Assembly: GCA_026770705.1 (NCBI GenBank)
Contig: JANJGN010000035.1
Coordinates: 3,844,001-3,908,000, forward strand
Length of the DNA: 64,000 bases
Source: Isurus oxyrinchus
Lineage: Eukaryota
Reading direction: 5' to 3'
Part shown: in pieces, positions 2,701 through 63,932 of the stretch
Layout of the letters: the number at the start of each line of letters is the position of its first letter
Position numbering within the stretch: position 1 is the first letter of the stretch
The notes under the pieces: generated by a model
Told to the model about the DNA's origin: nothing
The model's input: the letters and a program-made list of their open reading frames with translations, nothing else
Database searches by the model: none
Translations under genes and position numbers: made by a program

Positions 2701-3341
2701 CTACAGGATATTTCACTGCTCTCTTGATCTCTGTTCTGAACTTGGACTAGGCCGTCGCACAAATAAACATATTTGTGCAGCAATTTATATTCCGCAGCAT
2801 AAAGACGTTAAATGGGCGATTGTTTCAGCACTCCAGTTGTGGTCTCAGCCAATCATTTTACAGTTGTAGCAAGGTCTCATTCTTGTTTATCATTAAAAAC
2901 CATTTAAATGTCAACCAGCCCAAATTAGTGAAATAGCTGGGATTTCTAACGCAGAGCCGGTGCACATTTCTAACTATCCATCTAGGATTATATATAAAAT
3001 AGGAGGGCACATTTTTTAAACAGAGAAGAAAGCAGGTTGTTGCCAGGACCACAGCCGCAGTTCTTACTGTGCAATATTTAGTCCTCAGCTTCTGAAAACA
3101 AATGGCCACAAATCGATCAAAGGGGAAAGTGAAGCTGAACCAAACAGAACTGTCTCTGGCTGCACTTCTCAGGACAGTGTTAACATGACACGCAGGTGTG
3201 AGTCTAGGAAACTTACTATTACCAACTGATATTGTTCAGTATAACTTCGGTGATTAGAACCAATGTATCTGCCACTGCCATGGCGACCAGTGGAGAGTCC
3301 GCACTTTGCCCAGGACAGGATCACAGCCGTCACTAAATTAA
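2701..3341 (-). pseudogene. GPR139-like GPCR pseudogene, copy 1, exon 2
   Basis: Acceptor cttacag|TTAATTTAGTG. Homologous to 63037-63932. Has a 17-nt deletion after GLS, stops near 3215, TM5-TM6 replaced by foreign sequence, and a C-tail cut by the PLE after KRAVKYPV. Confidence 0.93.
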
Positions 3342-4099
3342 CTGTAAGTCAGAGAGATCAGGAAATTGAGACAGGAAATTACTGGTCAAAGATTCTCGGC
3401 CTCTATGTTCAGGCTGTAAAAATTGAATTTTTATGCAACAAAAGTGGTTGGTAGCAAGTCTCAGTTTGGACATTGAAGTACTCCAACCACAACCTCAACC
3501 TGATCTTTCATTAATTTCCAGGTTTAATAGTCACGGGCAGGAGGTGATCAGGTCCATGGTCGCAGGTCTAAAGGCGAAACATTTGCAGGTAAATAGAATG
3601 TTCTCATTTAACCTGGCTTCGGGGTTGAATATTGGCTGACTGGAATTTCCGACAGCTGAACAAATACATCTTAGGAGATATCGTGAGTTGTTTCGCACCA
3701 TGATTGGGACAGGAGGAACAGCAATACCTCAACAAGGCCTCAAGTTCGCCCCTAATCTGACTGTTCCTTAGCAAATAGCCCGCTGTCATTCATTGGACTT
3801 CATCCCCTGCCCTCGATAGAATTACCCTGGGATCAGACTGATGGCCTGGTCTGTGATCGGACCAATATTGTCCTTTTGCTTCGGATTCCTCCCAAACTAA
3901 CGTAAAATCAAACCTGAAATCAACTCTACGTCATTGCAATGAAGCTATGAATTTAACAATGAACAATTTGTGAGAAGGAGGAGTTCAGAAAAATAAACAG
4001 GCTACAGAACCTTTGTTTCGTCGCGTGGTAATAAACTGTTCCAGTTTCTATATGTATAGTGAGATTCTGAAATTGCTGTCAGTATGATTTTAAAACCAA

Positions 4100-5300
4100 C
4101 ACTGCTGAAAATGCCCAGTCAGCCTAGAGGTGTCTGTGGAAAGAAAAGAAGCAGAATTAATGTTTCAGGCCGAATAACTCGTTCAGAACTGTAACACCTT
4201 CGAGATTAACTGATTGAAAGTGATAATAGTCTGGGATAAATGTTGGGTAGGTGAGTGGGAAGATAAATGGTGAGATTTGTGATGTAATGGAGGGTAAGAG
4301 TAATTCAGTGATTAAATGTCTGATAGAGCAAGGAGAATGGAGAGAGTTAAAGGAACAAAAGAGCGCTCCACAGGACATGTAAATGTTTCCATGGGAATAA
4401 AAGAACTGGGAAGAAAAATAAGAGGTTCAGGAAACTTGTGCAAAATGTTGGGAACCGCAAAGATGCAGAACATACCATGGTGCATTTATTTACCGGGATC
4501 CCCATCCCAGGGGCCAACGCGAAACTCCTTCCCTACTCACCTCCCAATGGCTTTTCTTTATCTAGCCCCCATGAGATCATTTTAGATTATTGGACCAGTG
4601 ATTGCCAACTGAAGTTTCTTGTTAACCTACTTGTTTCCAGCAGCAAATAAATTACGTTAGTAATAAATATTCAAATGGAACAATATAGGATGGTGAGATA
4701 AAGGGGCCAGATAGAAGCTGGACATCGAAGTGAACTGTAATGCTACCAGAAGCTTAAATTTCTGCTTGCAGACTTAAAGGAAGTTTTCAGCAAATAAATC
4801 ACTCGATCTACATTTAGCAATCTCCAATGTGCGGGAAACTGCATTGTTGGCGTTGAATACATGTAATAATTTGGAACGAGTAGATGGAAATTCCCGTTTC
4901 ATCGAAATGTTATTTCTGGCATACAAAACGCAGGTGAAATGGATATCTTTCATCTCCAAGACTTGCACATGTCTGTTCCTGAAAAAGAATAACCAGGATG
5001 TTGTGTTGGTGGAATCATGACCCAGTGTTCACAACAGAAAGGGCGCTAGGGGGAAAAGCATGTGTGTTTCGTGATTGTTTTAGCTCAGCATGGTAGAAAT
5101 AGTTGAAAGCAATGTGCTGAGTGTGAATCCAGTTGGACTGGAAGGTAAGACCAAGCGGATTATTTCTGGAAGGGATTATTGTGTGTGATGATAGATATGC
5201 AGGGATGAACAGGCTCGAGTCCCTGACAATCTCAGTGGAGCAGAATTTGCAGAGCATAAACAAACAGAATTCAGGAGCAGAGGAGAGGAAGGTGGCATCA
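4100..5300 (-). mobile_element. Old degenerate PLE remnant(s) with a decayed pLTR/hammerhead at ~4100-4191 (paralog 35540-36400)
   Basis: ctgctgaaaatgcccagtcagcc...ctgtggaaagaaa...aatgtttcagg matches the pLTR layout. Linker-like frame (NNPLGLTF..HIAFNYFYH) at 5015-5395. Confidence 0.5.
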
Positions 5301-7029
5301 CTGAAGCACATGCAATGGGTCAGTGAAACTGGCAGAATTGGTAAGAGGCCATGAAGAATGCCGGGTTGAAGGAAGTGCCCTGATTGGATCTGCATGTGTG
5401 TTATTGGGTTTTGGAGAGGAGAGTGGTGCTAGGACTGTTCCTGAAAAGCAGTTGGAGAAGTGGAGGAAAAGAATGATAAAATAAGTGATGGACGCTCTGA
5501 ATGCGAAAGAGGGACGGAAATTAGACGCAACACTTTTTAAGGGTGAGAACATCCGACGATTGCTAATCACAGTCGGATTAATAATCTGCTCCTTTTCACT
5601 TAGTTTATACGGGATTTGCGACTTTCTTGCCTGATCTTCCTAATCGGGCTGGATGAGAAGCGTTCAGCGGAGTGGGTTGCCAGACCCTGCAGTATGATGC
5701 AGTAGAGTTGGACAAAAGTAAGCCTAATATCTAAAGCAGTCAATTTTAAAGATCGCAGTTACTTTAAGAACTGGGGAGGAATGGTAGCTGTAAGTCAAGT
5801 TGCTAGTTTGTTCCAGTGGGGTGTCGGGTGGTAAGTGGTGGGTGTTCGGTTGGAACCATGAGTTCATGTGGTACATGGGGGGAGTGAGGTGGGGTGGGGT
5901 GCTATGGTTGGCCAGGTGGTCATTGGGGGCTTAGTGTAGAGTGAGCAGGGTAGGCTGATAGTGCAGGGGAGACAAGGGAAGGTGGCAAGTCTCGTCTAAG
6001 GGATTAGTCAGACTGTGGGGAGAAATCTGTCCGCATAGGGGGATAGTTGGGAGGAGCGAGGCATTCAGGAGCTGGGGGTTATTGAGGGTTGTGGAGGCCT
6101 AGCCTCGGGGTCCAGTGGGATTTCCGGGAGCCAATTCCATACTTGCCCAGGATTTAACAATGGTTTTAATTCTTTCCTGGCTAGCCCTTCCTCTCAGACA
6201 GTCAGAACCACCTGAAGTTTCAAATTTAAATCGGAGCACGGCATCGTTCCCATGGCATGATACTTGCCCAACAGACATTTAGAATTCCCAATGTACTTGA
6301 TGACTGACAAAAAGTAGAGGTTACGCAGAGAAATGAAATGCTGCTGAGCGGTTGAGGCAAGGAGAAGCTCCAGTGCAAATATGCGCCAAGATGTTTTAGG
6401 TTGACGGAATTTCCCTCCCTGCCATCCAAGGAGTGGGCAGCAGAAATCACCCCTCCCATTATGGCTGCCCCATAGCCATTTCACGACCATCTATGCTTTG
6501 AATGTTGGAGCTGGGCCCCGCAATCAGGAGAACATCGCACCTGAGAGAGTTGCTGGCCAAACCGATTGACCACCAGCTCCCCAATCACTGCAGCGCCAGC
6601 AGCTTCAGTTGACAGGACTGGGCTGCACGCCGCCCCCAGTGCCTCTGTCCCAGGAATCCAGGACCAGGTAAGTGTTGGGGGCCTCTTGGCGGGGACGAGA
6701 GTTGTGGCCAAATGTGATCCGCAGAGGCATTGGTTAGGAGTGCTGGTGGGGAGTCCAGATATCTGGAGGGACTACATTCTAAGGCCAGGGGTGGGGGTTG
6801 GTGTCTACGTTAAACATAGGCTGCTGATCGAGGCCCTTCACCTTCCCACCGAAGCCTCAATCTTTATATTTCTGGGCTTCCTCCCTGCACCAGAACTCCT
6901 CTCACCAGCCTGAAAATTGAGATTCAACAGGAAAATATTGGCGACAAGTGACTTTTGAATATCTCGTTGCATTTAACGTCCCCACCATCATCTCAACTGG
7001 ACTGTGAAATTACGCCTATGTTACAATGG

Positions 7030-9590
7030 CCCCGATTTCAAGGCATTGCAACAGGTTTCGGGGCAGTTCTTTACTGGACAAGACAGATGGGTTGCATTTT
7101 AGCAGGACTGGGCCAAAGATATTCACATGGAGATTTGCTAGAGCTGGTGGGAAGAGTTTAAACAAGGGAGGTAAGAGATGGGGAACTGAGATTGGAGGTA
7201 GCCAATTGGTAACATGAAGCACAATTGTAGTATGCATAATTAGAAGGCAGAGGAAGCGAAGCAGCAGTGGAACATAACACTGAATAATCATTAAAAACAC
7301 AACTTTAAAGACATTCTATCTGAATGCACACAGCATTTGGAACAGGGCAGATGACCTCAAAGCACAAATATAAGTGAAGCTGTATGATTTTATTCGAATT
7401 ATGGAAACATGGTTACAGTATGACCAGGGCTGGGAACTCACAGATATTCATCATATAGAAAGAATAGACATACAGTAAAAACAGATAGGGTAGCACTCTG
7501 AATAGGTGATAAGATCAGAACATTATTGAGAGGTAATTTTAGCTCGAAGAATTGAAATCAATTTGGCTGGAACAACGAAATTGCAGGGAAATGTAATTAA
7601 AGTGTGGCTCTCAAAATAAGCTAAAGATAGCTTTAGATCAAAGGAAGTGGCTTATCCGTGGTGTCAAAATGGGAGTTAATTCCAAGAATTAGGAGCAATT
7701 TAATTTCCAGAAAATGAGGACCAGGGAGCAGATCCTCAAGAAAGAGAAAAGAGACGATGAATGCAATATAGTGCAAAACAACAGGATGGATTTTAAAATG
7801 CTTTTAGGTCTGTGAAAAGGTAAATTTCAGCATGCAAAAATGTCCGTCCATTATAGGGGAGACTGGAAAATGCGTAATGGAGAATATGAAAATGGCGGAG
7901 GAACGAAACAATTACTCTTTGTCTGCCGTCGTGAAGGAAGATAGAGAACATTTCTCAGAGATACTGGGAACCAAGGGACTTGTAAAAATGAAGAACTGAA
8001 AATTTTAGTATTAACAAAGATATAGAACTCAAAAAATTAGTTGGATTGAAGTTTGAAATATCACTTGGACCAGATGAGCTACATCCTGAAGTGTTGAAGG
8101 AGGCGGCTGTAGAGATACTGGATGCTTTGGTGGTTAATTTCAAAATTCTATAGATTCTAGAAATGCCTCTGCAGACTGGAATATAGCGAATGTAACCTTG
8201 ATATTAAGAATGGAAGGAGGGTGAAATCAGAGAGTCCCCTTAATTTTATGCAGGGAAAATGCTAGAATCTATAATAATGGAAGTGACAATGAGGTACTTA
8301 GAAAATAATGATAGGATTGGGCTGGAACAACATGGCTTTATCGAAGGCACCTCATGTTTGACAAACCTGTTGGAAGTTTTGGAGTTGTTACCCACAGCAT
8401 AGATGAAGAAGAACCGGCGGATGCGGAGTATTTTGATTTTCGAAGGATTTTTTAAGCTCCTATATAGGATGTGAGTCAAGAAAATTAGCACACATGGGGC
8501 TGGGGGTAATATACTGGCTTGGATTGACAAATGGTTAACACAGGAAACAGAAACAGAATAATATGTGGGTCATTCTCAGGGTGGCAGGCTATTACTAATG
8601 CGAAACCAGAAGGATCTGTGCTGAGACCACAGCTCATCATAAACAGTGTAAATAATTTGGACGTGCTGATCAAAGGTATTATTTCGAAATTTGTTGATGA
8701 CACAAAACGATAAGGAATGTAAGTTGTGAAGAGGGGAAGACTCAATAGTATTTGTAGAGGTAAAGTTATTGGGCAAAAACATGGCAGAATCAATATAATG
8801 TGAATAAGTGTGAAGTTATCCAAATTGGTAGAAAAGAACAGAAATGCAGAACATTTCTTAAATGGTAAGATATCGGGAATTGTTGGCATCCAAAGGCCCC
8901 ACGTTACCCTTGTTCCTGAGTCACAAAAAGCTAGCGTGCAGGCGCAGCAAACAATCAGGAAGGCAAATGGCATGCTGGCTGTCATCGCGAGGGGCTGCAA
9001 GTAAAAATGTCTTGCTTCAGTTATGCAGATCCTTGCTGATATTGCACCTGCAGAATTGTGTACAGTTTTGATTTCCTAATCTGAGGAGGGTCATATTTGC
9101 CACAGATGGAATGCAACGGATGTTCACCATGCTAAACCCTGGGATGGTAGGATTGTTTTATGATTAGAGATTGAGCAAACTGAGCTTGTATGCTCCAGAG
9201 TTTTGGAGAAAGGGAGGTGATCTCATGGAAATTTAGAAACTACTTTCTGAGTGTGATGGGGTGAATGTGGAATGCATGTTTCTCCTGGTTAATGAGTCGA
9301 GAACCAAGAGACACTGTTTCTGAATCAGAGTGGTGCTGTTTGAGCCTGTTTTGAGTTGGGATTTCTTCACTCCGAGAGTAAGTCTTTGGCATTCTCTACC
9401 AAAGGGCGCTATGGAAAAACACTCATTCAGCTGTTCAAGATATAGATCAATAGAACTCTATATACTATTGACATCAAGGGATATGAGGATAGCGGGTAAG
9501 AAGTAGTGTAGAGGTAGATGCTTATCCATGATCTCATCGAATGGCAGAGGATGCTCCAGAAGGCGAATGGTTTCCCCCTTCTTCGATGTT
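7030..9590 (+). mobile_element. Degenerate CR1 LINE (ORF1 esterase end, APE endonuclease, RT)
   Basis: DGLHFSRTG (ORF1), FYLNAHSI (EN start), SLGPDELHPEVLKE, QHGFIEGTSCLTNLLE, ISKFVDDTK. Confidence 0.85.
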
Positions 9591-9594
9591 CCTA

Positions 9595-11050
9595 AGGTCC
9601 GATGAGAGGCTTACTAAACTGGGAATTTTTTCTCTGGAATTTAGAAGAATGAGACATGATCTCATTGAAACCTACAAAAAATTTGAAGGTGCTTGACAGA
9701 TTGTTTCCGCTCAATCCGGAGGATGAAACTTGGGGGCATAGTTTCAGGGTAGGAGGCAAATCATTTAGCACATAATGTAAGGACAGAATTCTGCTTTAAT
9801 GACTGGAAGCCCGTATCAAATGGCATACCACAGGAATCTGTGCTGAGCCCCCTAATCTTTATCAATTATATAAACAACAGAGGTGACCATGTGGGAGGTA
9901 GGATTTGTAAGTTTGTGTATGTCACAAAGATTGGTGGTGTGGTTAATAGTGAGGCTGAGTGTCTTGGGATACAGTAAGGTATGGTCAAATGGGCAGATAA
10001 CTGGCAGATGGAATTTTACGCTGAAAAGAGTGAGGCGATACACGTTAGAAGGAGTAATTTGAAAAGGAAATATTCAATGAACGACATGAGAATCGGAAGA
10101 TCTGAGGGACAAAGGGACATTGGTGTGAGTGTCCATAGATCTCTGAAGGCAGACAGGCATGTTAGTGGGGTGGTGCAAAACGTATTTGGGGCACTTGCGT
10201 TTATCAATCGAGGCATAAATTACAAAAATAGGGAGGTCGTTTTGGAGTTGTATAGGACGCTGGTGAGGCCACAGCTGGATTACTGTGTGCAGTTCTATTC
10301 ACCACATTATAGGAAGGATGTGTTTGGACTGGAGGGGGTGCAGAGGAGGTTGACCAGGATGTTGCATGGGATGAAACATTCAAGATATGAAGAGAGGTTT
10401 GATAGACTTGGGTTAATTTCTTTGGAGCAGAGAAGCCTGAGGGATGACCTGATCGAGGAGTACAAGATTATGAGGGGCATGGACAGGGTAGTGGTCAACT
10501 GTTCCCCTTAGTTGAAGGGTTAGTCACGAGGGGACGCAAGTTCAAAGTGAGGGGCGGATGATTTAAGAGAATTGTGAAGAAAACCTTTTTACCCAGAATG
10601 TGGTGGCTGTCTGGAATGTCCAGCCTGGAAGGATGGCAAAGGCAGTTTGCCTCACATCCTTTAAAATGTACCTAGAAGGGAACTTGGCACGACATAAATT
10701 TTAAAGCAAGGGCCAAGTACTGGTAAATGAGTTTAGGTAGATAGTTCAGGTGTTGCTCACATGTTGGTGCAGACTCGCTGGGCTGAACCGCTTTTTCTGC
10801 ACTGTGTGATTCTGTGATTCTGAGGAAAAACTACTTCACTCAAAGGTTTGCAAAGCTTTGGAATTCCCAACATGAGGTTTGTGGATTCTCCATCGTTTAA
10901 TACATTTAATGCTGGGATAATCAGATTCTTCATTTCTAAAGGACTTTCTGGATATCGGCGGGAACATGGACTTGAAGCCCGAAATCAGGCGGAGCAGGCT
11001 CGATGGAGCTTGTGGTCGCTCCTATTGTTATTCCTTGTGTTCATGTTTTC
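9595..11050 (+). mobile_element. Nested CR1 3' fragments (9790-10822 inserted within an older CR1 3' end)
   Basis: ORF 9981-10511 has WADNWQMEF...LYRTLVRPQLDYCVQF. A (GATTCTGT)n tail ends ~10822. The flanking pieces are contiguous CR1 3' sequence. Confidence 0.8.
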
Positions 11051-12619
11051 TCGTGTCAAATAATTTGATATGAGAAACTCGTAAGTGACAACTTCAGTTG
11101 TGGGCATTCAAAATGCAGAGTTCTTCAATGTAGGTCAGGGAGGGAATCAGGATGTACCTGTCTACTCCGAGAGTGGTGACAATGCTGACTATATTACCAG
11201 ATGAATTATTTAGAGATTACCAAGGTAGACAGGTGCATGAGGGAGATAAGAAACTAATTCTCCGCTGATCGGATTCAAAAGCAGGGAAGGAGGAACGTTT
11301 GTGCTGCAAACATCGAAGACATAACCCAATTGTGCCAAATCTTCCTTTATCTGTAAGTTCTATGAATTTTTCGGTATCTTGATTATTCATCACAGCCACC
11401 AGCTATCTCGTAATATCGGAGAAGAGGCGGACTCTTTATTTAAATGTTTATTAATATTTTTACAGCTACCAGCCTGATATCTGTACTTTGAAAGGTGGCA
11501 GGTCTTCCCTGTACTTGTGTAGAATTCTTCTCGCAGACAGACAAATCACTGAGGATAAGGGCAGAGATTTCTACCTGTTAAATGTATGGGTGCCCTCAAT
11601 CAGGATAACAATTGTTTCATCGGAACTTAAAATTATTTACAGAAGGGGAACAGTCAATGATGACAGTCTGGTCTAACTTAGTGAGAATAAAACCCGGGTG
11701 GAATTTTCATGTTCCACCAAAGTCAATGGAATTTTGCGTGGTTTGTGACATTTTACAGACCTGCCCCCTCCGCGATGGGCTGTAAATTTCTTCCGTAGCA
11801 CTTGTGACCCATATAGTGTTCGGGGCATACTGGGGGGAAGATAAATAATCAGCACTAGAAAATGTTTCCAATAACAATATTACAGAAGGAAAAATGCATT
11901 AGGCAGAGTGGTAAAATGCATAAAATGCTGTCTATCCACCTACAAGTAGTAACCTGTTTCTGTAGGTGCCGATCAACAGGAGATAAAACAACATCAATGA
12001 TTTCAACCTTTATGTTGGCAACAAGCATTTTCAAACAACAGCTAAGCCATTCATCATTGTCATTTATTGCATTGGTTAAACATGAACAGATTGGAGTGGA
12101 TAGATCAGTTCATTGAAACAATGATATCAAAGTTGAACTGGCTTGATACATTCCTATAAGTGACCCAAACGTAGCACAATTCTACAGTTCCATATGGTCT
12201 CACTAACACATCATGACTGCTGTGAGGTGTTCTGATCCATTTTGTGACCCAGACTCAACACAATTCAACAGGGACTGTGCTTTTAGTGGCCAGTGATGGT
12301 CAGTGAGCACAATTCGTAAAGTTTTACAATAAATATTATTTCAAGTAAAACCTTCAAACAGAAATTTGCCTACTCAAAGATTTAGTTCAAGAACACAAAT
12401 ATTCTATCTAAAACAGATTTATTTTCAGTTAAATCAAGCAAATTAAACCATGGAGGCACTACAGGCCATTGACTTGGGAATAATAGAAAGAAAGCATTGA
12501 TCCGTTGCCTGCATAGTGAAGATCACTACTACCCATGGCATGTAACGTCAATCACAGGGCAAAATGAAAGACCAGTGCATAGACTGATTTATACAGTTTC
12601 AATGGATATTTTCACTTAC

Positions 12620-12686
12620 CAGGAACGCCAATGACACCAATGACCATGTAGAAAACTTTAGCAACTGTCCAAATATTTTCAAGCTT
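12620..12686 (-). pseudogene. GPR139-like copy 1, exon 1 (start codon apparently ATG>AAG)
   Basis: Reads (K)LENIWTVAKVFYMVIGVIGVP-G|gtaagt. The phase-1 donor joins the exon 2 acceptor to give IGVP-V-NLVTAVILS (TM1). Intron 3342-12619. Confidence 0.88.
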
Positions 12687-13454
12687 ATTCTCGGTGAAGC
12701 GATCTGTCCCTTTGTTCAGGCTAACTCAGGCGATGCATTCACAAAACATTCAATTTATGCCTTTGAGAATCTCCATGGGGATATTGATGTTGCAACACTG
12801 TTCAATTAACAAAAAAAAAACAAAGAAGTTTTGTAATTGAATTGTGCTAGAATAGATTTCGGTCTGAGATTGAATTTTAAAATCAAACAGAATTGGCAAA
12901 TTCGTTCATACGATTAAGTAATGATAACCAAAAGCGTGTTCTGCTAGAACCGGTGATGCTCTTTCAGATAACTTCAGGCCTATCCATAGTTACCATATTG
13001 CGGTGGTGATGTTCTTCACTCTGCAATTCCAAATGTGAGAATGGCGCCTCCATCATTGCTCTTCTGAATGTTAAAAGCAAGTTATCCTCTTACACTGGGT
13101 ACATGCAATAAGTTAGTTCCAAATTTTATAATGCCCATCTCATTTTTGCTGTCCTGCACTTGTGGTGTGGCTGCCACTCTGAATCAATGCAATCTACATG
13201 TCACAGCAAACTTTCAAGGCTTTTTTCCTGTCCCCTGGGTTTTAACATGCTCTTTTACCATGGGCATTCAAATCAGTGATAACAGTGGATTACTTTAGCC
13301 TTGCATTGCAAAATTTAATCAATAAATCATCTTACACCAGCTAAAAACCTGAAATTCTTAAAATTAGCATGCCATTAACTCAGACGAATACAAAGTTTTA
13401 TATCAATTGGAAAACCAACATGCACTTACGTGAATGAATTAAATGTAATACCTC

Positions 13455-14290
13455 AAGATGGGCAAATGCATGGGAGACGCAGCATAATGTGGATAAATGT
13501 GAGGTTATCCAAATTAGTAACAAAAGCAGGAAGGCAGATTATTTTCTGAATGTCTATAAAATGACAGAGGGGAATGTGCAACGAGGCCTGGCTGTCCTTG
13601 CTGAACCATCGCATGCAGGTGCAACAGGCGGTAAAGAAGGCAAATGATATTTTGGCCTTCATAGCGAGAGGATTCGACTCTTGGAGCAGTGATGTTTTGC
13701 TGTAATTTTGCAAAGCTTTAGTGTGACCACAACTTGAATATTGTGCACTGCTTTGTCTCCTTATCTGAGGAAGGATGTACTTGCTATAGAGGGAGCGCAG
13801 CGAAGGTTTACCAGACTGATTCCTGGGATGGTGGGACTGACATTTGAGGAGAGGTTGAGTCGGTAAAGATTACATTCACTGGAATTCTGGAGAAAGGTCT
13901 CTCTCATAGAAACATATAAAATTCTAACAGGGCTAGACATGGTAGATACACAAAAGATGTTCCCGATGACGGGGTAGACCAGAATCAGGGGTCACGGTCA
14001 GAGGATACAGGGTATAACATTTAGGGCTGAGAGGAGGAGACATTTCTTCACACACAGAGTGGTGAGCTTGTGAAATTCGCTGCCACTGAAAGATGTTGAG
14101 GACAAAACGTTGTTTGCTTTAACGAAGGCGTTAGATACAGCTCTTGGTCTGAAATAGATCAAAGGATTTGGGGAGAAAGCGGGAGAAGGATCTTTATTTA
14201 GATGACCAGCCATGATCAGGATAAATGGCAGAGCAGGCTCGAAGGGCCGAATGGCCTACTCCTGCTCCTAATTTCTATGTTTCTGTGTTT
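13455..14290 (+). mobile_element. CR1 LINE 3' fragment
   Basis: QVQQAVKKANDILAFIARG; 3' hairpin gaagggccgaatggcct; tttctatgtttctgtg tail. Confidence 0.85.
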
Positions 14291-14584
14291 CTATACATAG
14301 CCTCTAACAAACACCCTTCAAACGACACCACCTCTCAACGACAACACCCTCTGAGTGAAAGAACTACTGCACCTGTTGCAGCCCGACTTACCAATGCAGG
14401 ACCACTAACTTACGCCGCCCCCCAAAAAATCAAATGAGAAACTGCAACAGATACATCACCAACTATCAATATGTTCCTTCCAACGGATTCAGCCCCAGCA
14501 AATGACAGATAATCTCAAAATGATACAGCCCTAGAAATCTATGCAAGCATTCCAGTTAATGAAAACACTGCAGTATTTAAGGGG

Positions 14585-31170: not shown

Positions 31171-31194
31171 CAGTTTGGATTTGCATTCCAGATG

Positions 31195-31775: not shown

Positions 31776-31789
31776 GATCCAATAAGCTG

Positions 31790-51850: not shown

Positions 51851-53269
51851 TTTTCCATTTATAAAGGTCTTCTTCCGAAGGGTCCTGATTGTAAATAATA
51901 TATTTTTATTGTTCTCTTGGGCTCTAGCTTCAAGATTGGACCGTGGCTATAAAAACTACCATGGCTTATTGCATATAAGTCGGGGAGAGGGTGTTCTTTC
52001 GGGAAATCATGTCAATGCCTCAATCAATTCAGCCATGATCTTATTGAATGGTGCAGCATGTTAGAGGGGCAGAATGGACGGTACATTTTCCTATTTATTA
52101 CATCTTAAGATTTTAAGAGCTTTAATTGTAATCCTCGAACATTGCAATGTCCTTTAAAAACCAACCCCCTAGGCTCCAAGTCCACGTTTGCGAAGTATAT
52201 ATTTTGCATGTTGTTCTTGTTAAGAAAAATCAGGTTCACTGTCAACTTTCCATTTCCCACAGTGCTCATTTTTCAGCAATGCAGAGCAGTTCATTTCAGC
52301 AACACACGCTGGTGCCTAGGTGCCAATGAAACGGTCAATGGACGTCATTTCAAACTGAAATCAGCGACTGACATTGATCCAAGCGCTTCACATTAATTCT
52401 GTCAACAACAGCGATTGTTAAATTAGTTATGGCAATTATTGTGTATCCACGCGGCCATCAATCATGAAGGGTTTTTAATTGTCCCAATGTGCTGCCTGAC
52501 ATGTTGATTTCTTCCAGATATGTTTATGTCTTTATGTCAGCTTAGCATCTGCACTGTTTTGCTGATGTCTTGCCAATCTTTCTGCTTTTCCTTGATGTTG
52601 AATATTGTGGTGCAAGGAGTTCCGAGAGAAGAACAATGGTGAACAGAGAAAGAAAATGCTGGGAGACAAAAATGCGCCTCAGACACAGTCGCCACCTATC
52701 GTAGGGGTTCAGTGAACTGTAGCGACTCACAACCTCTCATTCCCAGAGCTTTGATCTATAACCTCATGGCACAATTGAAAGCAGTTCTGGGAAGTGCACC
52801 TGTAATTTGTTTCCAAACTGTTAAAAGCACATTCACAATTTTCAATTTCTTCAACAAACAAAGCAAGAACCACGCGCTCTTCACAGTTTTTGCATTTGCC
52901 ATGTGTCGTCTAAAAATCAAGACTTTTCCTGCATTGCTGGCAGAGACATTAAATTCAAAAGTTAACATAAGCGCATAAAAAACTAATTAATCAGAAGCAA
53001 GTCTCAAAATGTTAACGAAATGTTTTCTGCTGCCGAGAGCCTGATTTCATCGCTTTATCTGCTGATCTCGTTCAGTATTTGAATTTATGCGCACATAAAA
53101 GCTAATTTTGGGAAGGCGTTTAAATTGCTTGAAATTTGGAAAATATTGGGAAACATTTATTCTTTCTACATTATTTGTATCTACACTTTCAAGAAAATAA
53201 TTTTACCATCATTTCTCATGCCAGTTGGACTTTTGACCTTTTGGTGATATTTGGAGTGCGTTAGGACAA

Positions 53270-55150
53270 AGAAGAAAGAGAAGTACAGCACAGGAACAGG
53301 CCTTTCGGCCCACCAAGCTTGTGCCGATCATATTGCCTGTTAAACTAAAACATATTGCACTTCCGGGGTCCGTATCCCTCTATTCCCATCCTATTCATGT
53401 ATTTGTCAAATGCCTCTTAAACACCACTATCGTACCTGCTTCCGCCACCTCCTCTGGCAGCGAATTTCAGACACTCGCTACCTTCTGCATGAAAAAAAAT
53501 CCCCTGCACATCTCCTCTAAAGTTCTCTCCTCTCACCTTAAATCTATGCCCCCTAGTAATTAACTCTTCCATCCTGGGAAAAAGCTTCTGACTATCTTCA
53601 CTGTCCATGCAACTCATATATTTTAAACTTCTGTCAAGTCGCCCCTCAATCTCCGTCGCTCTAGTGAGAACAATCCGAGTTTCTCCAACCTCTCCTCATA
53701 GCTAATAACCTCCAGACCAGGCAGCATCCTGGTAAACCTCCTCTGCACCCTCTCCAAAGTCTACAAATCCTCCTGGTAATGTGCCGACTAGAATTGCTCG
53801 CAATATTTCAAGTGTGGCATTACCAAGGCTTTAGACATCTGCAGCATGGCTCCCCAGGCCTTATATTCAGTACCTCTGCCGATGAAGGCAAGCATGCCCT
53901 ATGTCTTCCTGAATGCCTTATCCACCTGCATTGCCACTTTCAATGACCTGTGGACCTGTAGACACAGATCCCTCTGTCCGTTGATGCACTTAAGGGTTCT
54001 GCCATTTACTGTATAATTAATACCTGTATTACACCTTCCAGAATCCATTACACAGAACAAAGAATACAGAGAGCAAAGAAAAAAGAAAAGTACAGCACAG
54101 TAAGAGGCCCGTTGGCCCTCCAAGCCTGTGCCGATCATATTGCCCATCAAGTAAATAATTTTTCAGTTCTGGGGTCCATATTCCTCTATTCTCATCCTAT
54201 TCATATATTTGCCAAGCTGCGTTTTAAAAGCCACTACCGTACCTGCTTCTACCACATTCTCTGGCAGCGAATTCCAGACACTCGCTACCCTTTGCATAAA
54301 AAACTAGCCCTGCACATCTCCTCTATAGTTTTCTCCTCTCACCTTAAATCTATGTACCCTTTTAATGCACTCTTCCACCCTGGGAAAAAGCTCCTCTCAT
54401 TTTTCCGGATTAAAGTACATCTTCCTTTATTCCGCCCACATCTCCAACCGATCTAAATCCCGTTGTATCCATTGACAATCCTCTTCACTATCTGCAGCTC
54501 ACCAACCTTAGTGTCGTCTGCAAACTTACTCGTTAGTCCAGTTACATTTTCCTCCAAAACATTTACGTATACTACAAATAGCAAAGGTCCCAGCACTGAT
54601 CCCTGAGGAACACTACTAGTCACAGCTCTCCATTCAGAAAAACACCCTTCCACTGCTACCCTCTGTATTCTATGACCATGGCAGTTCTGTATCCATCTTG
54701 CCAGCTCACCTCTGATCCCATGCGACTTTCGACTTTACCTTCTGTACCAGTCTGCCATGTGGGACGTTGTCAAAGGCCTTACTGAAATCCATGCAGATAA
54801 CATCTACTGCCCTTCCATCGTCGATCATCTTTGTCACTTCCTCAAAAAACTCGATCAATTTTGTGAGACACGACCTCCCCTTCACAAAACCATGCTGCCT
54901 CTCACTAATATGCCCATTTGCTTCCAAATGGTAGTAAGTACTGTCACGAAGGAACTTCTCAATAGTTTCCCTACCGCAGACGTAAGGCTCACCGTCCTGT
55001 AATTTCTTGGAATATCCCTGCTACCCTTCTTAAACAATGGAACAACATTGGCCATTCTCCAGCCCTCTGGGACCTCACCTGTAGCCAGTGAGGATACAAA
55101 GATTTCTCTCAAGGCGCCTACGATCTCCTCCATTTCTTCCCTCAGTACTC
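53270..55150 (-). mobile_element. CR1 LINE with nested CR1 3' end; paralog of 21190-23045, truncated by a ~5-kb deletion
   Basis: VPQGSVLGPLLF, SKFADDTKVG. The junction at ~55150 jumps to sequence homologous to ~28015. Confidence 0.85.
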
Positions 55151-55345
55151 TGTAGTTTTTGGAGCTGGAACTGGAGGAGGATAAATGGGGTGCATTGCAT
55201 TATAGGCGAGGGTGAATTTGGACAGCCAAAGCTCCAAAACGTATGCAAAGGGAAAATGTGGGCGGGTAACAGTAAGGGGTCATGTGGATTGGTATTGGGT
55301 CGGGTCTCTGAGTTGGTTTATGTATGATAATTACGGGGTGCTGTC

Positions 55346-55630
55346 ATGTGGGAGGGATAATTGGTAGGGGGGAAGTAGACACAATGTGGGAGGGATAATT
55401 GGTAGGGGGGAAGTAGACACAATGTGGGAGGGATAATTGGTAGAGGGGGAAGTAGACACAATGTGGGAGGGATAATTGGTAGGGGGGAAGTAGACACAAT
55501 GTGGGAGGGATAATTGGTAGGGGGGAAGTAGACACAATGTGGGAGGGATAATTGGTAGGGGGGAAGTAGACACAATGTGGGAGGGATAATTGGTAGGGGG
55601 GAAGTAGACACAATGTGGGAGGGATAATTG
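55346..55630 (+). repeat. 38-bp minisatellite, 7 full copies plus a partial
   Basis: Unit atgtgggagggataattggtaggggggaagtagacaca starts at 55346, 55384, 55422, 55461, 55499, 55537, 55575 and 55613 (one 39-bp variant). Confidence 0.97.
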
Positions 55631-58507
55631 AGTGTATGCAGTGGGTGAAAAGACGGATGATTAATGGTACTAGAGTAACAAAGGGAGAGACATAATGGTA
55701 AAAGTGTGATGGGTATTGGGGAGAGGTAATGGAGAGCAGCATTCTGCATTATATTTGTGGAAGAGGAATCAGGGAGTTTTGGGTGGGGTTAATGAGGTAT
55801 TGGGAAGGGACCGTGGGGGAGCAGAATGAGGTAATTGAAGTGTACTAGGGAATGGGGAGGGGAGAAGGTAAGGTGCAGGGAAAAATAAGAAAGTGTAACT
55901 GTGAAAGGGGAGGCAAGTGGTAATGAGAAGTGGTAGTGGGAGGGGGAAGGTGAAAGGTAACGCAGAGGTGTGATGGTTTGGGATAATCTAGGTAGTGCAA
56001 CGGTTGAAGATATGTGGGGATTGATAGGTTGGTGGTGCAATAGGGAGAGGGAGTGCGAAGTCTGAGCGGGGAGGCAAAAAGATGTGGAGGAACCTGGGTC
56101 GAAATGAGGAGGAGAGGGGAGGGGTAATGTGAAAGAGGTAATGGGGACTGGCGAATAAAATGTTTAATAAGGAGGATAAATGTGTTGGCGCATCGGGAAA
56201 GGAGGCTACTGAAGTGTTTCAGGGAAGGTAATGAGGAGTGATGATGGGGGCCAGAGAGAGGAAAGTAACAGGGTGGGGAAAAGAGGAGGGCATGGTAAAG
56301 GCCTATGAGTAGGGTGGATTAATGTTGGTGGAAAACCAGGATTGTTAATGGGGTACGGACAATGTGGAAGTGGGATATGGAAGGAAATGTGCAAAGCGGT
56401 AAATGGACAACGACAATGAGCAAGAGTAATGAGATTGGTGTATTCCAGGAGGGGTAATGGGTGAGGGAAAATGTGGAGTGGTGGCTGGAGCAGGAATGGA
56501 GCTTTATAATGGGGGAGCAATGGGAGAAGTATAATGGTGATGTATAATGATGGATGGATAATTGGAGAGCATAGAGTGAGAGGTAATGTAGAGTTGGAAT
56601 GGGAATTGTGAAGTGGTGGGGACCAGTCAATATCATGGACTAATAAAGAGGGGAATTGGGAGGGATATTGGGTAAGATTAAATGAAACTGGGACGGGTGA
56701 TGTGATAATAGAACTTATAATGGATTTGAGAACTGGATAATGCTAATGGGAATGGGAGATTAGGGAATGATAAGTGTGAGGGAATTCTGAAAAGGAATGC
56801 AAAGTGTGAGGCATAATCAGGAGAGGTAATAGGGAGGTCTTATTTTTACGAGGTTGTATTCGCCCTAGGATTCTGCTATTGTGAATTACCAATGATACTG
56901 CTAAAGTGAGACTCAGCGACACAATTAAGAGTATGCCCATACAGGATCAGATTGGACAGATTAATGTTAGCGCTAGGTATTGATACCATTCCCTGCACTG
57001 TGTTGGGTCTAAAGTACGCAAATTATCTTCATTTTCCTGTTTAATTTGTTTGTGCTGCTATCTCAATAGATATCCTTGCAATAGGCAATACCCAGTTGAA
57101 ACTCACTGAAGTAGTAGTGTTTCAGGAGTACAATTAATGGTGTTGCCCAACATATCGCAAATGTCCCTTATCATGTTGTCACCGAAGATGAGAGACTTGT
57201 TCTTATGGACGGCTTCAATTTCAATTTTTCGTCTTCTCAGGGTAAACGGGAAGAGGTATTTCCTAAATGTGAACTCCTCCATTCCCAGATACCGCTCCAA
57301 TAACCAGCTTTCAACAAAAATGAGAAGCAGTTGAAAATGCGACTTATAGCACACATGCATTTGCAGAATACAGAATGTCTTCTCCAATTTTAACATGCAG
57401 CATGAATGTCTGGTGGCTTCATGAGGCCTCAAGACCAATCCAGTCAGAATGTTCTGTCAGCCTGACAATGGGACTGGGAATGTTATCCTTAACAAGCACA
57501 ACTGTACTGAAATGCGTGATGTTCCTAATGACGGGTTCCAATTTTCATCCATTCGACTGGCTGGCCAACATGACATACGGCCCTGCTGGAGATGAAGTTA
57601 CCACCAAGACTTGTTAGACTGATGTAAGAATAATCGAGTATCTTGCGGTGTATATGATATGAGTTCTCCTCAAGATTCGCTAAATCAATGCTTATTTGGG
57701 CTGCCTTAGACACGTCAAAGCGATGCCCCTTAATGACCTACCTGATCTATGACTGGTTCTGCACCGCATGAATTGGCTAAATGGTTGAGCGAGCTGCTAT
57801 AACCAGTTCTGAAGGAGTTTTCCAAATATACAGTGAAGGTTTCCTTCAATTTTGTGAGATACATATGCATAGCAAAGCCATGTTGATGTGTTCATTCCAC
57901 ATTGCCAGCCTAGTCACTGATGTGCCAGGGAAAAATAGCCATAGGCGTTTGCACTATCTCCAAATATCATGGTGATCACGCCACTATTGTCTGATGCTGG
58001 TTTAACTGAACTTATGAATTTAGCAACCCACATAGTTTGGCTCAGCATTAAAACTATTTACTCCCAAAGAGATCGTGTTTCCATGGGATTCCCATTTCAT
58101 CAGTTTCGAGGAGAAGCATATTTTCAAAAGTCAACTTTTAGGCCTTGCATGTTTTCAGTACATGGCCAATACATTTGTTATTTTTGAATCAGCAACTGTA
58201 TGTACGAATTTCCATACACACCAAATGTAGTCGGACGTCTTTTCTGAATTAAAATAAAACTTTTGGGGCAATAGTTCTCTTGTGCATTCTCCCCCGGGTC
58301 TGCGTGTCGACCAGTCAGAATCCACATGCCAAATATTCAGCACCTTGTTTTTAATGCAATGTAAATCGTAGTTCTGTTCAAAACTTGAAATCCTTGCATA
58401 TTTCCTCATCAGTGCATCGTGAAAAGATTCGACAACATTTCTGTTTTTTTCAGAAATACTTCAGCTCTTTACCACCAAGCTCTACATTTACGTTTGAGTT
58501 TACAGAT

Positions 58508-59580
58508 TAGAACAAAGAACACAGAAAACCACAGTACAGGAACAGGCTCTTCGGCCCTCCAAGCCTGCGCCAACCATATTGCCCGTCAACTAAAACATGT
58601 TGCACTTCCGGGGTCCATATCCTTCTATTCCCATCCTATTCATGTATTTGTCAAGCTGCCTCTTAAACACCACTATCGTACCTGCTTCCGCCACCTCCTC
58701 TGACAGCGAATTCCAGACACTCACTACCCTCTGCATAAAAAAACTTGCCCTGCACATCTCCTCTAAAGTTTTCTCCTCTCACCTTAAATCTATGTCCCCT
58801 AGTAATTGACTCTTCCACCCTGGGAAAAAGCTTCTGATTATCTACTCTGTCCCTGCCACTCATAATTTTGTAAACTTCTATCAAGTCACCCCTCAATTTC
58901 CATCGCTCTAGTGAGAACAATCCGAGTTTCTCCAAACTCTCCTCATAGTAATAACCTCCAGACCAGGCAGCATCCTCGTAAACCTCCACTGCACCCTCTC
59001 CAACGCCCTCATATCTTTTTGGTCATGTGGCTAATAGAATTGCACACAATATTCCAAGTGTGGCCTAATCAAGGATCTCTACAGCTGCAGCATGACTTCC
59101 CAACTTTTATACTCAATACCCCTGCCAATGAAGGCAAGCATACCATAAGCCTTCCTGACTACCTTATCCACCTGCGTTGCCACGTTCAGTGAGCTGTGGA
59201 CCTGTACACTCAGATCCCTCTGCCCATCAATGCACTTAAGGGTTCTGCCATTTACTGTATAATTCCTGCCTGTATTATAACTTCCAAAATACATTACCTC
59301 GCGTTTATCCGGATTAAACTCCATCTGCCATTTCTCCACCCAAGTCATCAACCGATCTATATCCCGTTGTATCCTTTGACAATCCTCTTCACTATATGCA
59401 ACTCCTCCAACCTTAGTGTCGTTTGCAAACTTACTAATTAGCCCAGTTACATTTTCCTCCAAATCATTTATGTATACTTTAAACAGCAAAGGTCCCAGCA
59501 CTGATCCCTGCGGAACTCCACTAGTCACAGCACTCCATTCAGAAAAGCACCCTTTCGCTGCTACCCTCTGTCTTCTATGA
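58508..59580 (-). mobile_element. 5'-truncated CR1 LINE present only in unit B
   Basis: VTSGVPQGSVLGPLLF...SKFANDTKVG. Absent at the paralogous site ~31175. Confidence 0.88.
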
Positions 59581-62519
59581 CTTAACTTCAATGATATACA
59601 CAGTATCCATAAAATTCATCCTAAGGTTATCTCTAACACAAATTCCAAAGCATAACTGTAGCCCTAATCCTTTGCATTCCAGATGCAGTTTGTATTCCAG
59701 ATACAGTTAGGTCTGGACTGAGAGTAGCAGTTAGGATTAGTTTCCATATAAGTGCTAGATTTGATATTAAGGTTAGTGATAGGGCTATGATTAGAGTTAG
59801 GGTTAGTTACATTTAGTTGTATGCTGAGTTAGGATTTGGATTCGGTGTATTTTGACAATTAGGGCAAAAGCTAACTTTAAAGTTTGTGTTTTTGATCATT
59901 GAACATTGATGCATAGCTTTAGGGTTAAAGATTGGTTTTGGGTTAAGGTAACGTTAGAGATAAACTTGGTTTGAAGATTCAATATAGAATGTTTTAAAAG
60001 TTGCACAAAGCTTTCTAGTTAAGTTATGTTTTCAGACCACATTTAGTTTTATAGATGCAATTGCAGTTAGAATGAGAGTCACTGGAATGTTTAGAACTAA
60101 GGTTGTAATGGTGTTAAGATTCTATTTATGTTACGTTTTAGGGTTTCAGTAAGCATTAGGATTAGAGCTACAGTTATGCTTTGGAATTGGTGTTAGAGTA
60201 AAGATTAGGGTGAATTTTATGGATACTGTGCTTATCGTTGAAGTTAGTTTGAATGTTTAACTTTAGGGCTAATGATTCATGTTCAGTGGAGGTTAGCTTT
60301 AGGGTTGGATCTAATAAGCTGAATAGGCTGTCAATGCTGGTGAAATTAAAATTGGGAATGTGCAAATGTCCAAATTATATCAGCACAGATATCTGTTGAT
60401 TTGTGAACGAGGTTAAAGGTATTGGAAAGATTGTAGGTGCTGAAGGAATATACAGTGATAGCGAAGGTTGCGGTAGATGATGATGGAAAGAGGGGGTGGG
60501 GATGCTGGCCATAGAGGAATTTTCAAATAAGGATGGATCTTGTAAAATCAGAGTGTTTGTCAATTAACCAAGGTAGCTTAGCGCGAATTTGGATGACTAA
60601 CGAACTGGACATGGTACAAGAAATGGCATGGAGAGCAGCCTCTTGGATGGCTTCAAGTTTTGGAGGGTAAAATGTGGTACTTTGTTATGGTATGTTTTGA
60701 AATGTCAAGTTCAGAGGAACAGAAAGGCAAGCATTGAGTTTCAAAAGAAGGTAATCTTAGACGGGGGAATATTCAGGTAATGTTAGTGATGTGCAAGTAG
60801 ATGGTCTTAGTGTTGTTATGGGTCACTGCCGCTGCGAAATTTAATGGACAGAAACATCCAGCAGCTCTTAGTCTGGCATGGCAATGTGCTCAAAGATTCA
60901 TGTCGAGGTCAAATATGATGGCAAGCCTCTGAGCACTCGGTTTCAGCCTCAGGTTGTTTCTAAGTAGAAGAGTGGTTTTGGAGTCTGGTGAATAGTGCTT
61001 GTGGCGGGGTTCACAGATAATGATGTCCAGCTTCCCAAACATCAGTCAATGAATATTTCTATCATACTGCATGGGATGGCAGAGAAACAGATTGATGAGT
61101 GATTTGGAGGATGGTGGAAAAGCACTGGAGGAGAACTGCATAATCAGCCATGGCACACGTGTCCAGACCTAAGGGGAGGGAGAATTCCACATGTCACTGT
61201 CACTTCGGATGCCATTTAAGACTTTAGTGAGAAGTTGTTCGGGACATGAGATGCAGCCATTTAAATCATGGAATACAAATAGGCAATTCCCTGAAAGATT
61301 GACATGGGGTTTGGGACGTGACAGCACTTTCATTGACTTTGGAAAGAAAACGAATTTTGGAGGTGGGGTGATCGTTTTCAGGCACAAAGTGGTTAAGTTT
61401 CTTTTTAAAGAGAGGGGTGAAGACTGCAGAGTTAACAGGGAAATGCTCAGAAACTTAAGAAAAATTGGAAGCTTAGATGAAAATATATTGTGTGAGATCT
61501 GCATAATGTGACAACGTCCATCTTGGGTTATAAAAGATACCTGCGGAGACAGTGGGTGCACTGATTCAGATTTTGCAAAATTCCTTACGTCAGTGCACAC
61601 TGGGAGTGAGCAAACATTACATCACTTCTGCAGTCAGGAGGTGGATGGACACAGGCCAATTTTCCTTGACATCGAGCAAATGCTGTATTGTTAAGGAAGT
61701 CTTGATTAATTTTGCAAACCATGGTATGATCAAATAAAGTCAACGTGGTTTATTAAATCATGTTGACAAAATTATTGGCATTTTAAGAATGTACAAGAAA
61801 GAGGCCTCACTACAACTGTAAACAGATTGGCTAAGGCCAAAGCTAGAATGCTGAGCACATTTTTGTCTCCATATTTAGTCAGAGTTATCATTGCATTGCA
61901 GGTGGTCCCACGAAGCATTCCTAAAATGCTCTCTGGGAAGCAATTAAAGCCGTGATTTAATTGGGACTCCACTCTTTGGAAAAACGAGAAGCGCTCCTCT
62001 ATAAGCACATACCATTTTGAAGGGAAAAATACTGAAATGCTGTTCACCAAGCTGACACTGCGAGAAAATGGGAGAATCAGCAAGGCGTAACCTTGTACCC
62101 CAGCATGTTCTGGCACGAGAATGACGAGTAATAATGGGACAACACACAAATTGGAAATTACCGAGCAATGATTTCACTAAGTTTTAATCCCACAATACAC
62201 GCTTTACAATACACTGGTTCATCACAAACACATAATCATAAATCATTATTTTGCTCATCCATAGAGTTGTCAATTCCCTGCAAGTCCTGCTCTTCAGTAG
62301 TAGAGGAAACTAGTCTGACTAAAGGTTGAGTGAGGCATTCTAATTATTTTTATTCCCTTTATTTCAAGGTGGAATATTGTTTCAATGACAACATTGACCG
62401 GCCTCTTCAAATAAAACTTCAGCTATGATTGTCGAATGAGGTATCCATTTATTTGTTTAATTATGATATGAGGTGCCCATTAATGCTTTCATTTGCATTT
62501 CGCGGGAGCCTATCCGACA

Positions 62520-62730
62520 GGCAATGGGCACTCGGCGGAGTGCGCCCAGCACAAGACCGGGCTCTCCCTCATAAACACACACACGAGGGGAGCAATTCAC
62601 CATAACCAACAGGAAGCCTGAGCACCCGGCGGAAACCCACGCAGACATCGGGAGAAACTCAACACTAACGTATACCAGAGGTCAGACTCCAACCTGGGTC
62701 CCAGGTGCTGTCAGGCAGCAGCTCCCTAAA
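62520..62730 (-). mobile_element. V-SINE / HE1-like tRNA-derived SINE
   Basis: gagcacccggcggaaacccacgcagac (V-domain) and aacctgggtcccaggtgctgtcaggcagc (antisense tRNA-like head). Confidence 0.7.
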
Positions 62731-63036
62731 CTTTAGCTTTTATCTTTGATACTCTGAGCTCTTTCCTTCCAACGTGCCTCCCCACTCTCATGCCATCCCC
62801 CCTCCCCACCACCATCGCCCCCACCCCCCCCGCAGCGTGTCACAGTTATTGGACATTTGTCATGTTTGCCCCTATGGAAATAACATCGAGTCTCAGAATG
62901 GTAGCTGTTCCCCCTCCTCCTATATTGTTTGATTCTAAATCTCCAGCCATTCATGGCATCATTAATTTAATGGACACCTGAGGACAAGTGTCACATTCTT
63001 GATTTGGAAATGCTGGCAGCCACACCTTGGCTGGTC

Positions 63037-63932
63037 TCAGTCTTTTTGTTTGTTAATTAACCAAATAAATGATGTTACCGGATATTTCACAGCTCTCTTG
63101 ATCTCTGCCCTGAACTTGGACTGGGTCGCCCCATAAATAAATGTATTTGTGCAGCAGTTTAAATTTCGCAGCATAAACCCGACTTGTTCAAAGATATAAA
63201 AAGAATCTTCATCCAGGTGGCTAGCAACATCAAAGAAATATAAAACAAATACCGCCCAGAGGAGGATAAAACTGCCAGATATCGTGAAAAGTAACACCGC
63301 TGACTTCCGTCTGTTCTCCATCTCTGGGTCACCGCGATTCTCTGACTTGCATTGACCCCTCAGAACCTTCCGGACCCGACTAGCCACTAAAATGTGTCTG
63401 ACTGTCAGAGTGTTGAGTAACAGAATTAAGACGAATGGGAGCAGTGGTGTTAACACTGTACCAAACCACTTAAACGTCAACCAGCCCAAGTTAGTGAAAT
63501 AGCTGGGTTTTCTAACACAGAGCCACGGCAGATTTCCAATTATAAATCTAGGATTATAAGTAAAATAGGAGGGAACATTTTTTAAACAGAGAAGAATGCC
63601 GGTTGTTGCCAGGACCAAAGCCGCAGTTCTTGCTGTGCAATATTTAGTTCTCAACTTCTGACAACAAATGGCCACAAATCGATCAAAGGAGAAGGTGACA
63701 GTGAACCAAACAGAAATGTCTCTGGCTGCACTTCTCAGGACAGTATTCACACGACACACATGGGTGAGGTCTAGGAAACACACTGGGAAATAATACCAAC
63801 TGATCTGATTCAGTATAACTTCGGTGATAATAACCAGTATATCCGCCATTGCCATGGCCACCAGGTAGCGAGTGGTGCCGGTGGAGAGGCCACACCTTCC
63901 CCGGGACAGGATCACAACCGTCACTAAATTTA
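63037..63932 (-). CDS. Class A GPCR, GPR139/GPR142-like, copy 3, exon 2 (intact; exon 1 beyond the window)
   Basis: Acceptor cttgcag|TAAATTTAGTG. Open frame to TGA with YLVAMAMADIL (TM2), FSFDRFVAIC (DRF), TPLLPF (TM5), FILLW (TM6), NCCTNTFIY (TM7) and QSKFR (helix 8). Confidence 0.92.

Follow-up and report, generated by a model that had tools for sequence, protein, structure and literature searches.

A slice of a tandem receptor cluster in Isurus oxyrinchus and the chondrichthyan-wide family to which it belongs

The stretch of Isurus oxyrinchus DNA analyzed here, a window of 64,000 nt (contig JANJGN010000035.1; 42% G+C and rich in repeats), captures part of a tandem cluster of two-exon, class A G-protein-coupled receptors (GPCRs) whose family extends across the chondrichthyans. 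We hold with high confidence that this is a large chondrichthyan family that has diversified its pocket, and, whether its role is in sensation or in immunity, it seems to constitute an extensive set of vertebrate receptors that had escaped description. All coordinates given below are positions within the window, and the copies are numbered 1–3 by ascending position. On its minus strand the window carries GPCR exon 2 three times, each copy with a phase-1 acceptor (3341, 34767, and 63932); the acceptor-to-acceptor spacings of 31,426 and 29,165 bp, together with flanks duplicated in self-BLAST blocks of 78–97% identity, bear out a first-pass annotation of this DNA, which had put the three copies at intervals of 31.4 and 29.2 kb and had noted that their flanks are duplicated. 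In copy 3 (63037..63932, minus strand) the exon 2 frame is open from the first transmembrane helix (TM1, at N1.50) to the stop, while copy 2 (33873..34767) and copy 1 (2702..3341), both on the minus strand, are pseudogenes. The family profile matches exon 2 of copies 1, 2, and 3 with expectation values (E) of 3e-43, 5e-96, and 5e-150, respectively. A fourth exon-2 locus or gene copy was not found when this profile was run against the six-frame pieces of the window.

The window genes are class A (rhodopsin-like) GPCRs with two exons. Copy 3 exon 2 matches Pfam 7tm_1 at 65.9 bits (cut-off 30.5, E 5e-18), the one domain above its Pfam cut-off (DUF7535 is weak, at E 0.028), and its AlphaFold2 model adopts the 7TM fold with a pLDDT of 86.9. 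The class A residues N1.50, D2.50, D/E-R3.50, P5.50, W6.48, and Y7.53 are conserved.

Size, Distribution, and Phylogeny of the Family

A search with the copy 3 protein returned 2,095 clusters (90% identity, E ≤ 1e-3). Among the 120 matches listed, all are shark proteins, and 118 carry the name "probable" or "putative GPR139". The horn shark Heterodontus francisci accounts for at least 78 members among these 120 by hand count, of which 36, again counted by hand, have the same longest contig, of 74.5 Mb. Without filtering, the search found 964 representatives at 50% identity, of which 110 have E ≤ 1e-30; the taxon look-up covered 30 of the 150 representatives listed, and 20 of the 21 with E < 1e-50 carried a chondrichthyan name. 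The chondrichthyan hosts comprise sharks, the batoids Hypanus, Leucoraja, Rhinoraja, and Narcine, and the chimaera Callorhinchus. In four of four DNA runs, the summed contig depth over the conserved bin of TM3 and intracellular loop 2 (ICL2) is ∼800–1,100× the single-copy depth, which is to be read only as "many copies", since contig depth does not measure copy number and is inflated where short contigs overlap.

The chondrichthyan rows form one clade in both trees, with support of 89/71 in the 38-row tree, the bootstrap of which is not fully settled, and 88/82 in the 18-row tree (both unstarred). Their sister is a clade of amphibian, sturgeon, and bichir proteins (96/88 with 38 rows and 100/99 with 18 rows, both starred), and orphans from coelacanth, teleosts, and amphioxus branch outside the family and its sister in both trees. 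Deep subfamilies are common to sharks and rays. Because a Callorhinchus protein falls inside the clade, the family would be older than the holocephalan–elasmobranch split, if that protein is nested as drawn. Taken with the pseudogenes in the window and the 2,095 clusters, the chondrichthyan clade upholds the earlier proposal of birth-and-death turnover in a large, lineage-specific repertoire.

The trees suggest that the family arose from one orphan gene of a wider GPR139/GPR210-related group and that a gene of the ancestral type persists, apparently as a single copy, in amphibians, sturgeon, and bichir. This sister gene (P0240, P0281, P0297, and P0315) shares with the family an acidic-Pro-Glu/basic motif before TM6 and the cysteines at C3.25 and in extracellular loop 2 (ECL2), a pair retained in 82 and 84 of the 86 family rows, respectively, whereas GPR139 aligns an Asp at 3.25. 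Unlike the family, the sister gene keeps P6.50, which only 4 of 86 family rows retain (a difference from GPR139 as well), has a nearly frozen pocket (95% identity), and is represented by one cluster per species among the matches of word-limited searches, in 20 amphibian clusters, sturgeon, and bichir alike.

Rinne et al. (2019, PMC6504862) placed the GPR210A/B orphans of coelacanth, gar, and teleosts beside GPR139/142; the main text of this survey lists no amphibian GPR210 and does not contain the word "shark". The outer group of our trees (coelacanth P0233, teleost P0241 and P0317) probably corresponds to these GPR210 orphans (reference proteins ENSLACP00000014196, ENSLACP00000015589, and ENSLACP00000019189), a correspondence drawn from branching. 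P0317 was considered as a true GPR139/142 and rejected; at 65 bits to GPR139, it is a separate orphan. Three or more orphan subtypes of bony vertebrates bear the automatic name "probable GPR139" or no name, and they share a conserved ECL3 motif that also occurs in amphioxus. No amniote member of these subtypes appeared among the matches in the searches run. We also observed that the database models P0002, P0003, and P0004 each combine a partial copy with a complete one, which fits mis-joining of tight tandem arrays during annotation.

Pocket Variation and Proposed Function

Protein alignments of 56 horn-shark paralogues (those members of the 78 with 295–345 residues, a count accurate to within a few partial models; mean identity 76%) were compared with those of 20 amphibian orthologues of the single-copy sister gene (mean identity 78%), which served as the control. 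Sites were divided into 30 pocket, 49 other outer-TM, and 127 inner positions. In the horn shark, the entropy falls from 1.71 in the pocket to 0.80 at other outer and 0.37 at inner positions (p 6e-6 and 1e-12), whereas in the amphibians it rises over the same classes, from 0.13 to 0.36 to 0.63. Pairwise identity gives the same picture, with 46% in the pocket and 87% at inner sites in the horn shark versus 95% and 77% in the amphibians, and the contrast survives subsampling to 20 sequences (1.54 vs 0.33). The pocket strings are distinct in 55 of the 56 paralogues, and the 30 most variable shark sites include 14 from the pocket and 2 from the inner set. Throughout the family, ICL2, ICL3, and the inner ends of TM3, TM5, TM6, and TM7 are nearly fixed, while the pocket-facing parts of TM2, TM3, ECL2, TM6, and TM7 vary. 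As far as these alignments indicate, the single-copy sister gene has the pattern of a receptor dedicated to a single unchanging ligand, and the shark family is its mirror image. A variable pocket above a conserved G-protein face fits a repertoire for many ligands feeding into one signaling pathway, and the first-pass suggestion of chemosensory- or immune-type evolution is sustained by the 46% and 87% identities.

We give about an even chance to the reading that the family is a repertoire for chemical sensing in chemosensory cells. The surviving copies would be under selection that holds the cytoplasmic face and diversifies the pocket, so that many receptors of differing specificities might converge on one G-protein pathway. 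The proposed targets are external or luminal chemicals sensed by cells of the nose, skin, gill, or gut. The ligands are probably small peptides or metabolites, because receptors of the wider group have aromatic or amidated peptides as ligands; the group includes the protostome receptors for myoinhibitory peptide (MIP), myosuppressin, and FMRFamide, whose ligands are described as amidated aromatic peptides (PMC8557429).

The OR, TAAR, V1R/ORA, and V2R repertoires resemble the family in their tandem clusters, pseudogenes, variable pocket, and conserved signaling face, and FPR and MRGPR are sensor repertoires with the same traits. The family differs from OR, TAAR, V1R, and V2R in having a separate origin, as only 7tm_1 lies above the Pfam cut-off; for copy 3, no OR, TAAR, V1R, V2R, or T2R domain passes its Pfam cut-off. 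The nematode srw chemoreceptors, reported to be closest to peptide receptors (PMC3963977), offer a precedent. Like the family, srw and the srw-like protostome expansions are chemoreceptor-type expansions related to peptide receptors, and PF10324 (Srw) occurs in 17–74% of the members of some Atlas neighbor clusters. Unlike nematode srw, the family represents an independent vertebrate event, and copy 3 has no Srw match in Pfam at E ≤ 0.1.

FPRs and MRGPRs fill an immune- and irritant-sensing role in mammals, and immune sensing is the main rival to chemosensation. On this account, which we regard as rather unlikely, the family supplies immune or irritant sensors on granulocytes, mast-like cells, or nociceptive neurons for microbial, parasite, or damage peptides. 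The evolutionary signature, variable in the pocket and conserved at the cytoplasmic face, would be identical; turnover is very fast, with two of three copies dead; and cartilaginous fishes are described as being without MAS1 and related receptors (PMC8455134), which leaves the role open. The receptors nonetheless have no sequence link to chemoattractant receptors, since the family profile scores GPR139 at 93 bits and chemokine receptors at no more than 65. Their very short N-terminus, which contained a sequon in none of the 51 stretches checked, is also unlike that of chemokine receptors as generally known. A few database names had raised chemokine, vasopressin, or capa receptor identity, and these assignments were rejected.

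The family might instead comprise reproductive or pheromonal peptide receptors, acting in sperm or the oviducal gland or on seminal peptides, shaped by sexual selection in internally fertilizing fishes. We judge this improbable, and we know of no matching ligand family. In its favor, some of the OR and V2R genes of the catshark show enrichment in testis (PMC11979771), and the wider group includes the MIP, myosuppressin, and FMRFamide receptors noted above (PMC8557429), but a few partner peptides would not require paralogues by the dozen in each genome or deep subfamilies common to sharks and rays.

Several points weigh against chemosensation as the function, or against the family as drawn. The chondrichthyan rows are recovered as monophyletic with only moderate support, the trees contain no true GPR139 or GPR142, and many of the database models may be pseudogenes or mis-predicted. 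The 30 pocket positions, which we take to be a generic class A set, were placed from the anchor residues D2.50, R3.50, P4.60, C45.50, P5.50, W6.48, and Y7.53. Among the window copies, the ratio of nonsynonymous to synonymous divergence (omega) is 0.31 in the outer half and 0.40 in the inner half, with no outer excess; omega values come from the three window DNA copies only, the relatives having been compared as proteins. Birth-and-death evolution with a diverse pocket, as read from sequence, fits immune, somatosensory, or reproductive receptors equally. Finally, the shark nose has been described as V2R-dominated, with robust V2R expression (PMC10116579), so a further receptor family may be unneeded.

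A bolder form of the chemosensory reading, which we advance only tentatively and consider less than probable, is that this is an independently evolved vertebrate chemoreceptor family with hundreds of genes per genome, on which cartilaginous fishes chiefly rely for class A sensing. The uniform label "probable GPR139", given to each copy by annotation pipelines, would account for its having been overlooked. If this form is true, the view of sharks as having few GPCRs and a sense of smell built on ∼34 V2Rs would be undone, and the frozen-pocket amphibian sister would offer a direct route to the ancestral ligand. The olfactory repertoire of cartilaginous fishes has been reported as very small despite their sense of smell: the catshark has 34 V2R genes and 4–9 genes in each other olfactory family, and its olfactory neurons are Go/TRPC2-positive (PMC10116579). 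A "relative paucity" of GPCRs has likewise been stated for cartilaginous fishes (PMC8455134). The horn-shark members, at least 78 among the 120 matches listed, outnumber the four known olfactory families of the catshark combined. The single-copy sister gene in Xenopus and salamanders provides a natural control, and its ancestral function and ligand are testable in model animals.

We found no description of the expansion in the literature searched, outside of which most subscription papers lie. Neither "GPR" nor "139" occurs in the main text of the catshark genome paper (PMC11979771), and there was no match in the searched part of the whale-shark paper supplements, which comprised 12 of the 24 files and a further 4.0 million characters from file 19. 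In the portions consulted, PMC12294341 and PMC5207463 mention GPR139 in passing only, the latter with an "Orphan 139-like" entry in a table.

Relation to GPR139 and GPR142

Human GPR139 is the best sequence match in the PDB, at 44.5 bits for copy 3 as a single query and 92.9 bits for the family profile, and in this respect the "GPR139-like" label of the first-pass annotation stands. Its identity to copy 3 is 22–23%, however, and the two are not paralogues in the narrow sense; true GPR139 orthologues are reported to be at least 70% identical to the human protein, zebrafish included (PMC7318219). The fold search, which does not discriminate among peptide-type receptors, gave matches with a template-modeling score of about 0.7, with CCKAR first and GPR139 at ranks 2–3. 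With the copy 3 query, human GPR139 scores below coelacanth (117 bits), salamander (110), annelid-like (80), and amphioxus (73) proteins; with the family profile, all of these again outrank it, the amphibian/sturgeon/bichir gene reaches 228 bits, the best outside the chondrichthyans, and amphioxus and worm proteins reach 162–176 and 120–137 bits, although these bony-vertebrate, amphioxus, and worm orphans had been selected as top matches. Judged by these comparisons, the family is not orthologous to GPR139/GPR142.

GPR139 resembles the family in being a two-exon gene (PMC7318219), and GPR139/GPR142 share with it this exon number, W6.48, and a TM7 motif without proline. The TM7 motif NTFIY, which had been pointed out as departing from NPxxY, is indeed the sequence of copy 3, and 71 of 86 family rows have it. 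It is a clade trait and no oddity, because the aligned GPR139 motif, NFFLY, also lacks the proline; we accordingly rejected NTFIY as a novelty. The family is unlike GPR139/GPR142 in being multicopy, in its hypervariable pocket, and in the change of five of the six agonist-site residues.

GPR139 is activated by L-Trp, L-Phe, and ACTH/MSH peptides and is described as coupling mainly to Gq/11 (PMC7318219), and the first-pass annotation had suggested an amino-acid/peptide-sensing repertoire for the window genes. An amplified set of L-Trp/L-Phe-type receptors would agree with GPR139 being the best PDB sequence match and ranking 2–3 by fold, with the retention of W6.48 in 85 of 86 rows, and with the aromatic residues common at 6.51 and 7.39. 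The agonist site itself speaks otherwise: E108, F109, H187, W241, R244, and N271 of GPR139 correspond to R, S, G, W, F, and F in copy 3, so that only the Trp at 6.48 is kept, and 74 of 86 family rows retain none of the five non-Trp residues, with a maximum of two in any row. The pocket is, moreover, the most variable part of the family, and the identity is the 22–23% given above. Amino-acid sensing is, on the aligned residues, not transferable from GPR139 to the family, and we assign this explanation a low probability.

Mosaic Units, Exon 1, and Turnover in the Window

The ∼30-kb units of the first-pass annotation hold as a spacing, but they are mosaics, with divergence of 17–19% in the flanks near exon 2, 6.5–8% in upstream blocks, and 2.7% in one block. 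The upstream block of unit 1 (10572..23046) is 6.5–8% diverged, where measured, from its paralogue in unit 2 (41584..55152). Copy 2 exon 2 with its downstream flank (28016..34835) is paralogous to 55156–64000, in which the downstream flank of copy 3 occupies 55156..63036. Unit 2 also contains an internal tandem duplication of ∼8.4 kb (36435..49989), with halves at 36435–41585 and 44852–49989 that are ∼9% diverged. By these divergences the upstream blocks are younger than the exon-2 flanks, and the size of the difference indicates that paralogues have swapped blocks carrying exon 1 and promoter. A younger upstream/exon-1 block could come to stand before an older exon 2 through recurrent unequal exchange or conversion. 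Unequal crossing-over or conversion among ∼30-kb units would generate new copies along with the mosaic units observed, and many copies would subsequently die, as two of the three in the window have.

Such a picture also invites the explanation that a duplication-prone cassette was amplified by genomic drift, without need and with neutral variation. Two dead copies of three and repeat-rich mosaic units are what drift would produce, yet we consider it very improbable: omega is 0.36 even against a pseudogene, pocket-facing positions vary more than the remaining outer-TM positions, whereas in the single-copy sister gene they vary less, and the family has been retained in sharks, batoids, and a chimaera. 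The omega value, a sign of purifying selection, comes from copy 3 versus copy 2 (synonymous divergence, dS, 0.197; nonsynonymous divergence, dN, 0.071), with dS equal to the flank divergence of 0.19–0.21. The copy 3 exon differences listed against the DNA runs number three and are all synonymous (119 further rows lie outside this list). A dN far below dS and listed differences that are only synonymous give indirect support for a living copy 3. Contigs from the DNA runs cover the intergenic flank evenly at ∼2.3% divergence (81 differences in 3,457 bases over four flank pieces).

Copies 1 and 2 are dead, as had been claimed, through deletions or frameshifts and stops. Copy 1 carries deletions of 17, 7, and 1 nt, a TAA at ∼3220, and an additional TAG; its 3′ end is truncated at ∼2701 by a repeat resembling a short interspersed nuclear element (SINE), and its TM5–TM6 region is replaced by an insert (2804..2896) that matches 33442–33536 at 84%. 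Most of this insert derives, in inverted orientation, from the flank downstream of the gene itself, which suggests a template-switch rearrangement. Copy 2 has three truncating lesions (+1 nt at ∼34194, −2 nt at ∼34072, and TGA at 34020–34022) and the substitution D3.49H. The claim that the lesions are independent is only half shown: no copy 1 lesion is present in copy 2, but the truncating lesions of copy 2 sit in the stretch lost from copy 1.

The 22-codon exon 1 of the first-pass annotation was located at 12620..12686 on the minus strand (22 codons + 1 nt, donor G|GTAAGT). It belongs to the dead copy 1, from whose exon 2 it is separated by an intron of ∼9.3 kb containing fragments of long interspersed nuclear elements (3342..12619, minus strand), and its start codon position reads AAG, not ATG. 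It is matched by tblastn at E 3e-6 and is the sole significant profile match (E 7e-5); a first, ragged exon-1 profile had given only E 1.3. Among relatives, 22 codons is the commonest exon 1 length (38 of 55). A second exon 1, for unit 2, was not found in tblastn and profile searches of the window, and at the deletion junction 42980..42984 of unit 2 the ∼860 bp equivalent to 12010–12867, including exon 1, are gone. The description of one copy as intact therefore holds for copy 3 exon 2 only, because copy 3 exon 1 must lie beyond base 64000. No 26-bp satellite adjoining exon 1 was found in the window.

Several minor features accompany the units. Each has one decayed purine-rich tract with 13/26/38-bp periodicity (27884–29317 and 55232–56585), and a fresh 38-bp × 7.5 array of 99% identity lies at 55346–55630. 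SINE-like repeats of ∼100–140 bp, 94–100% identical, occur at 1185–1351, 2603–2700, 24920–25047, and 49044–49273, and include the one that truncates copy 1. From their motifs, we take fragments at 1–2670 and 50881–51816 to be from a Penelope-like reverse transcriptase and a GIY-YIG-like endonuclease, and those at ∼9978–10508, 22731–23946, 45239–46753, and 59082–59615 to be CR1-like. A full-length but diverged copy of the U12 small nuclear RNA (41333–41479, minus strand; Rfam, 77.8 bits), probably a pseudogene, is present only in unit 2, without a target-site duplication, at a site matching ∼17807 of unit 1.

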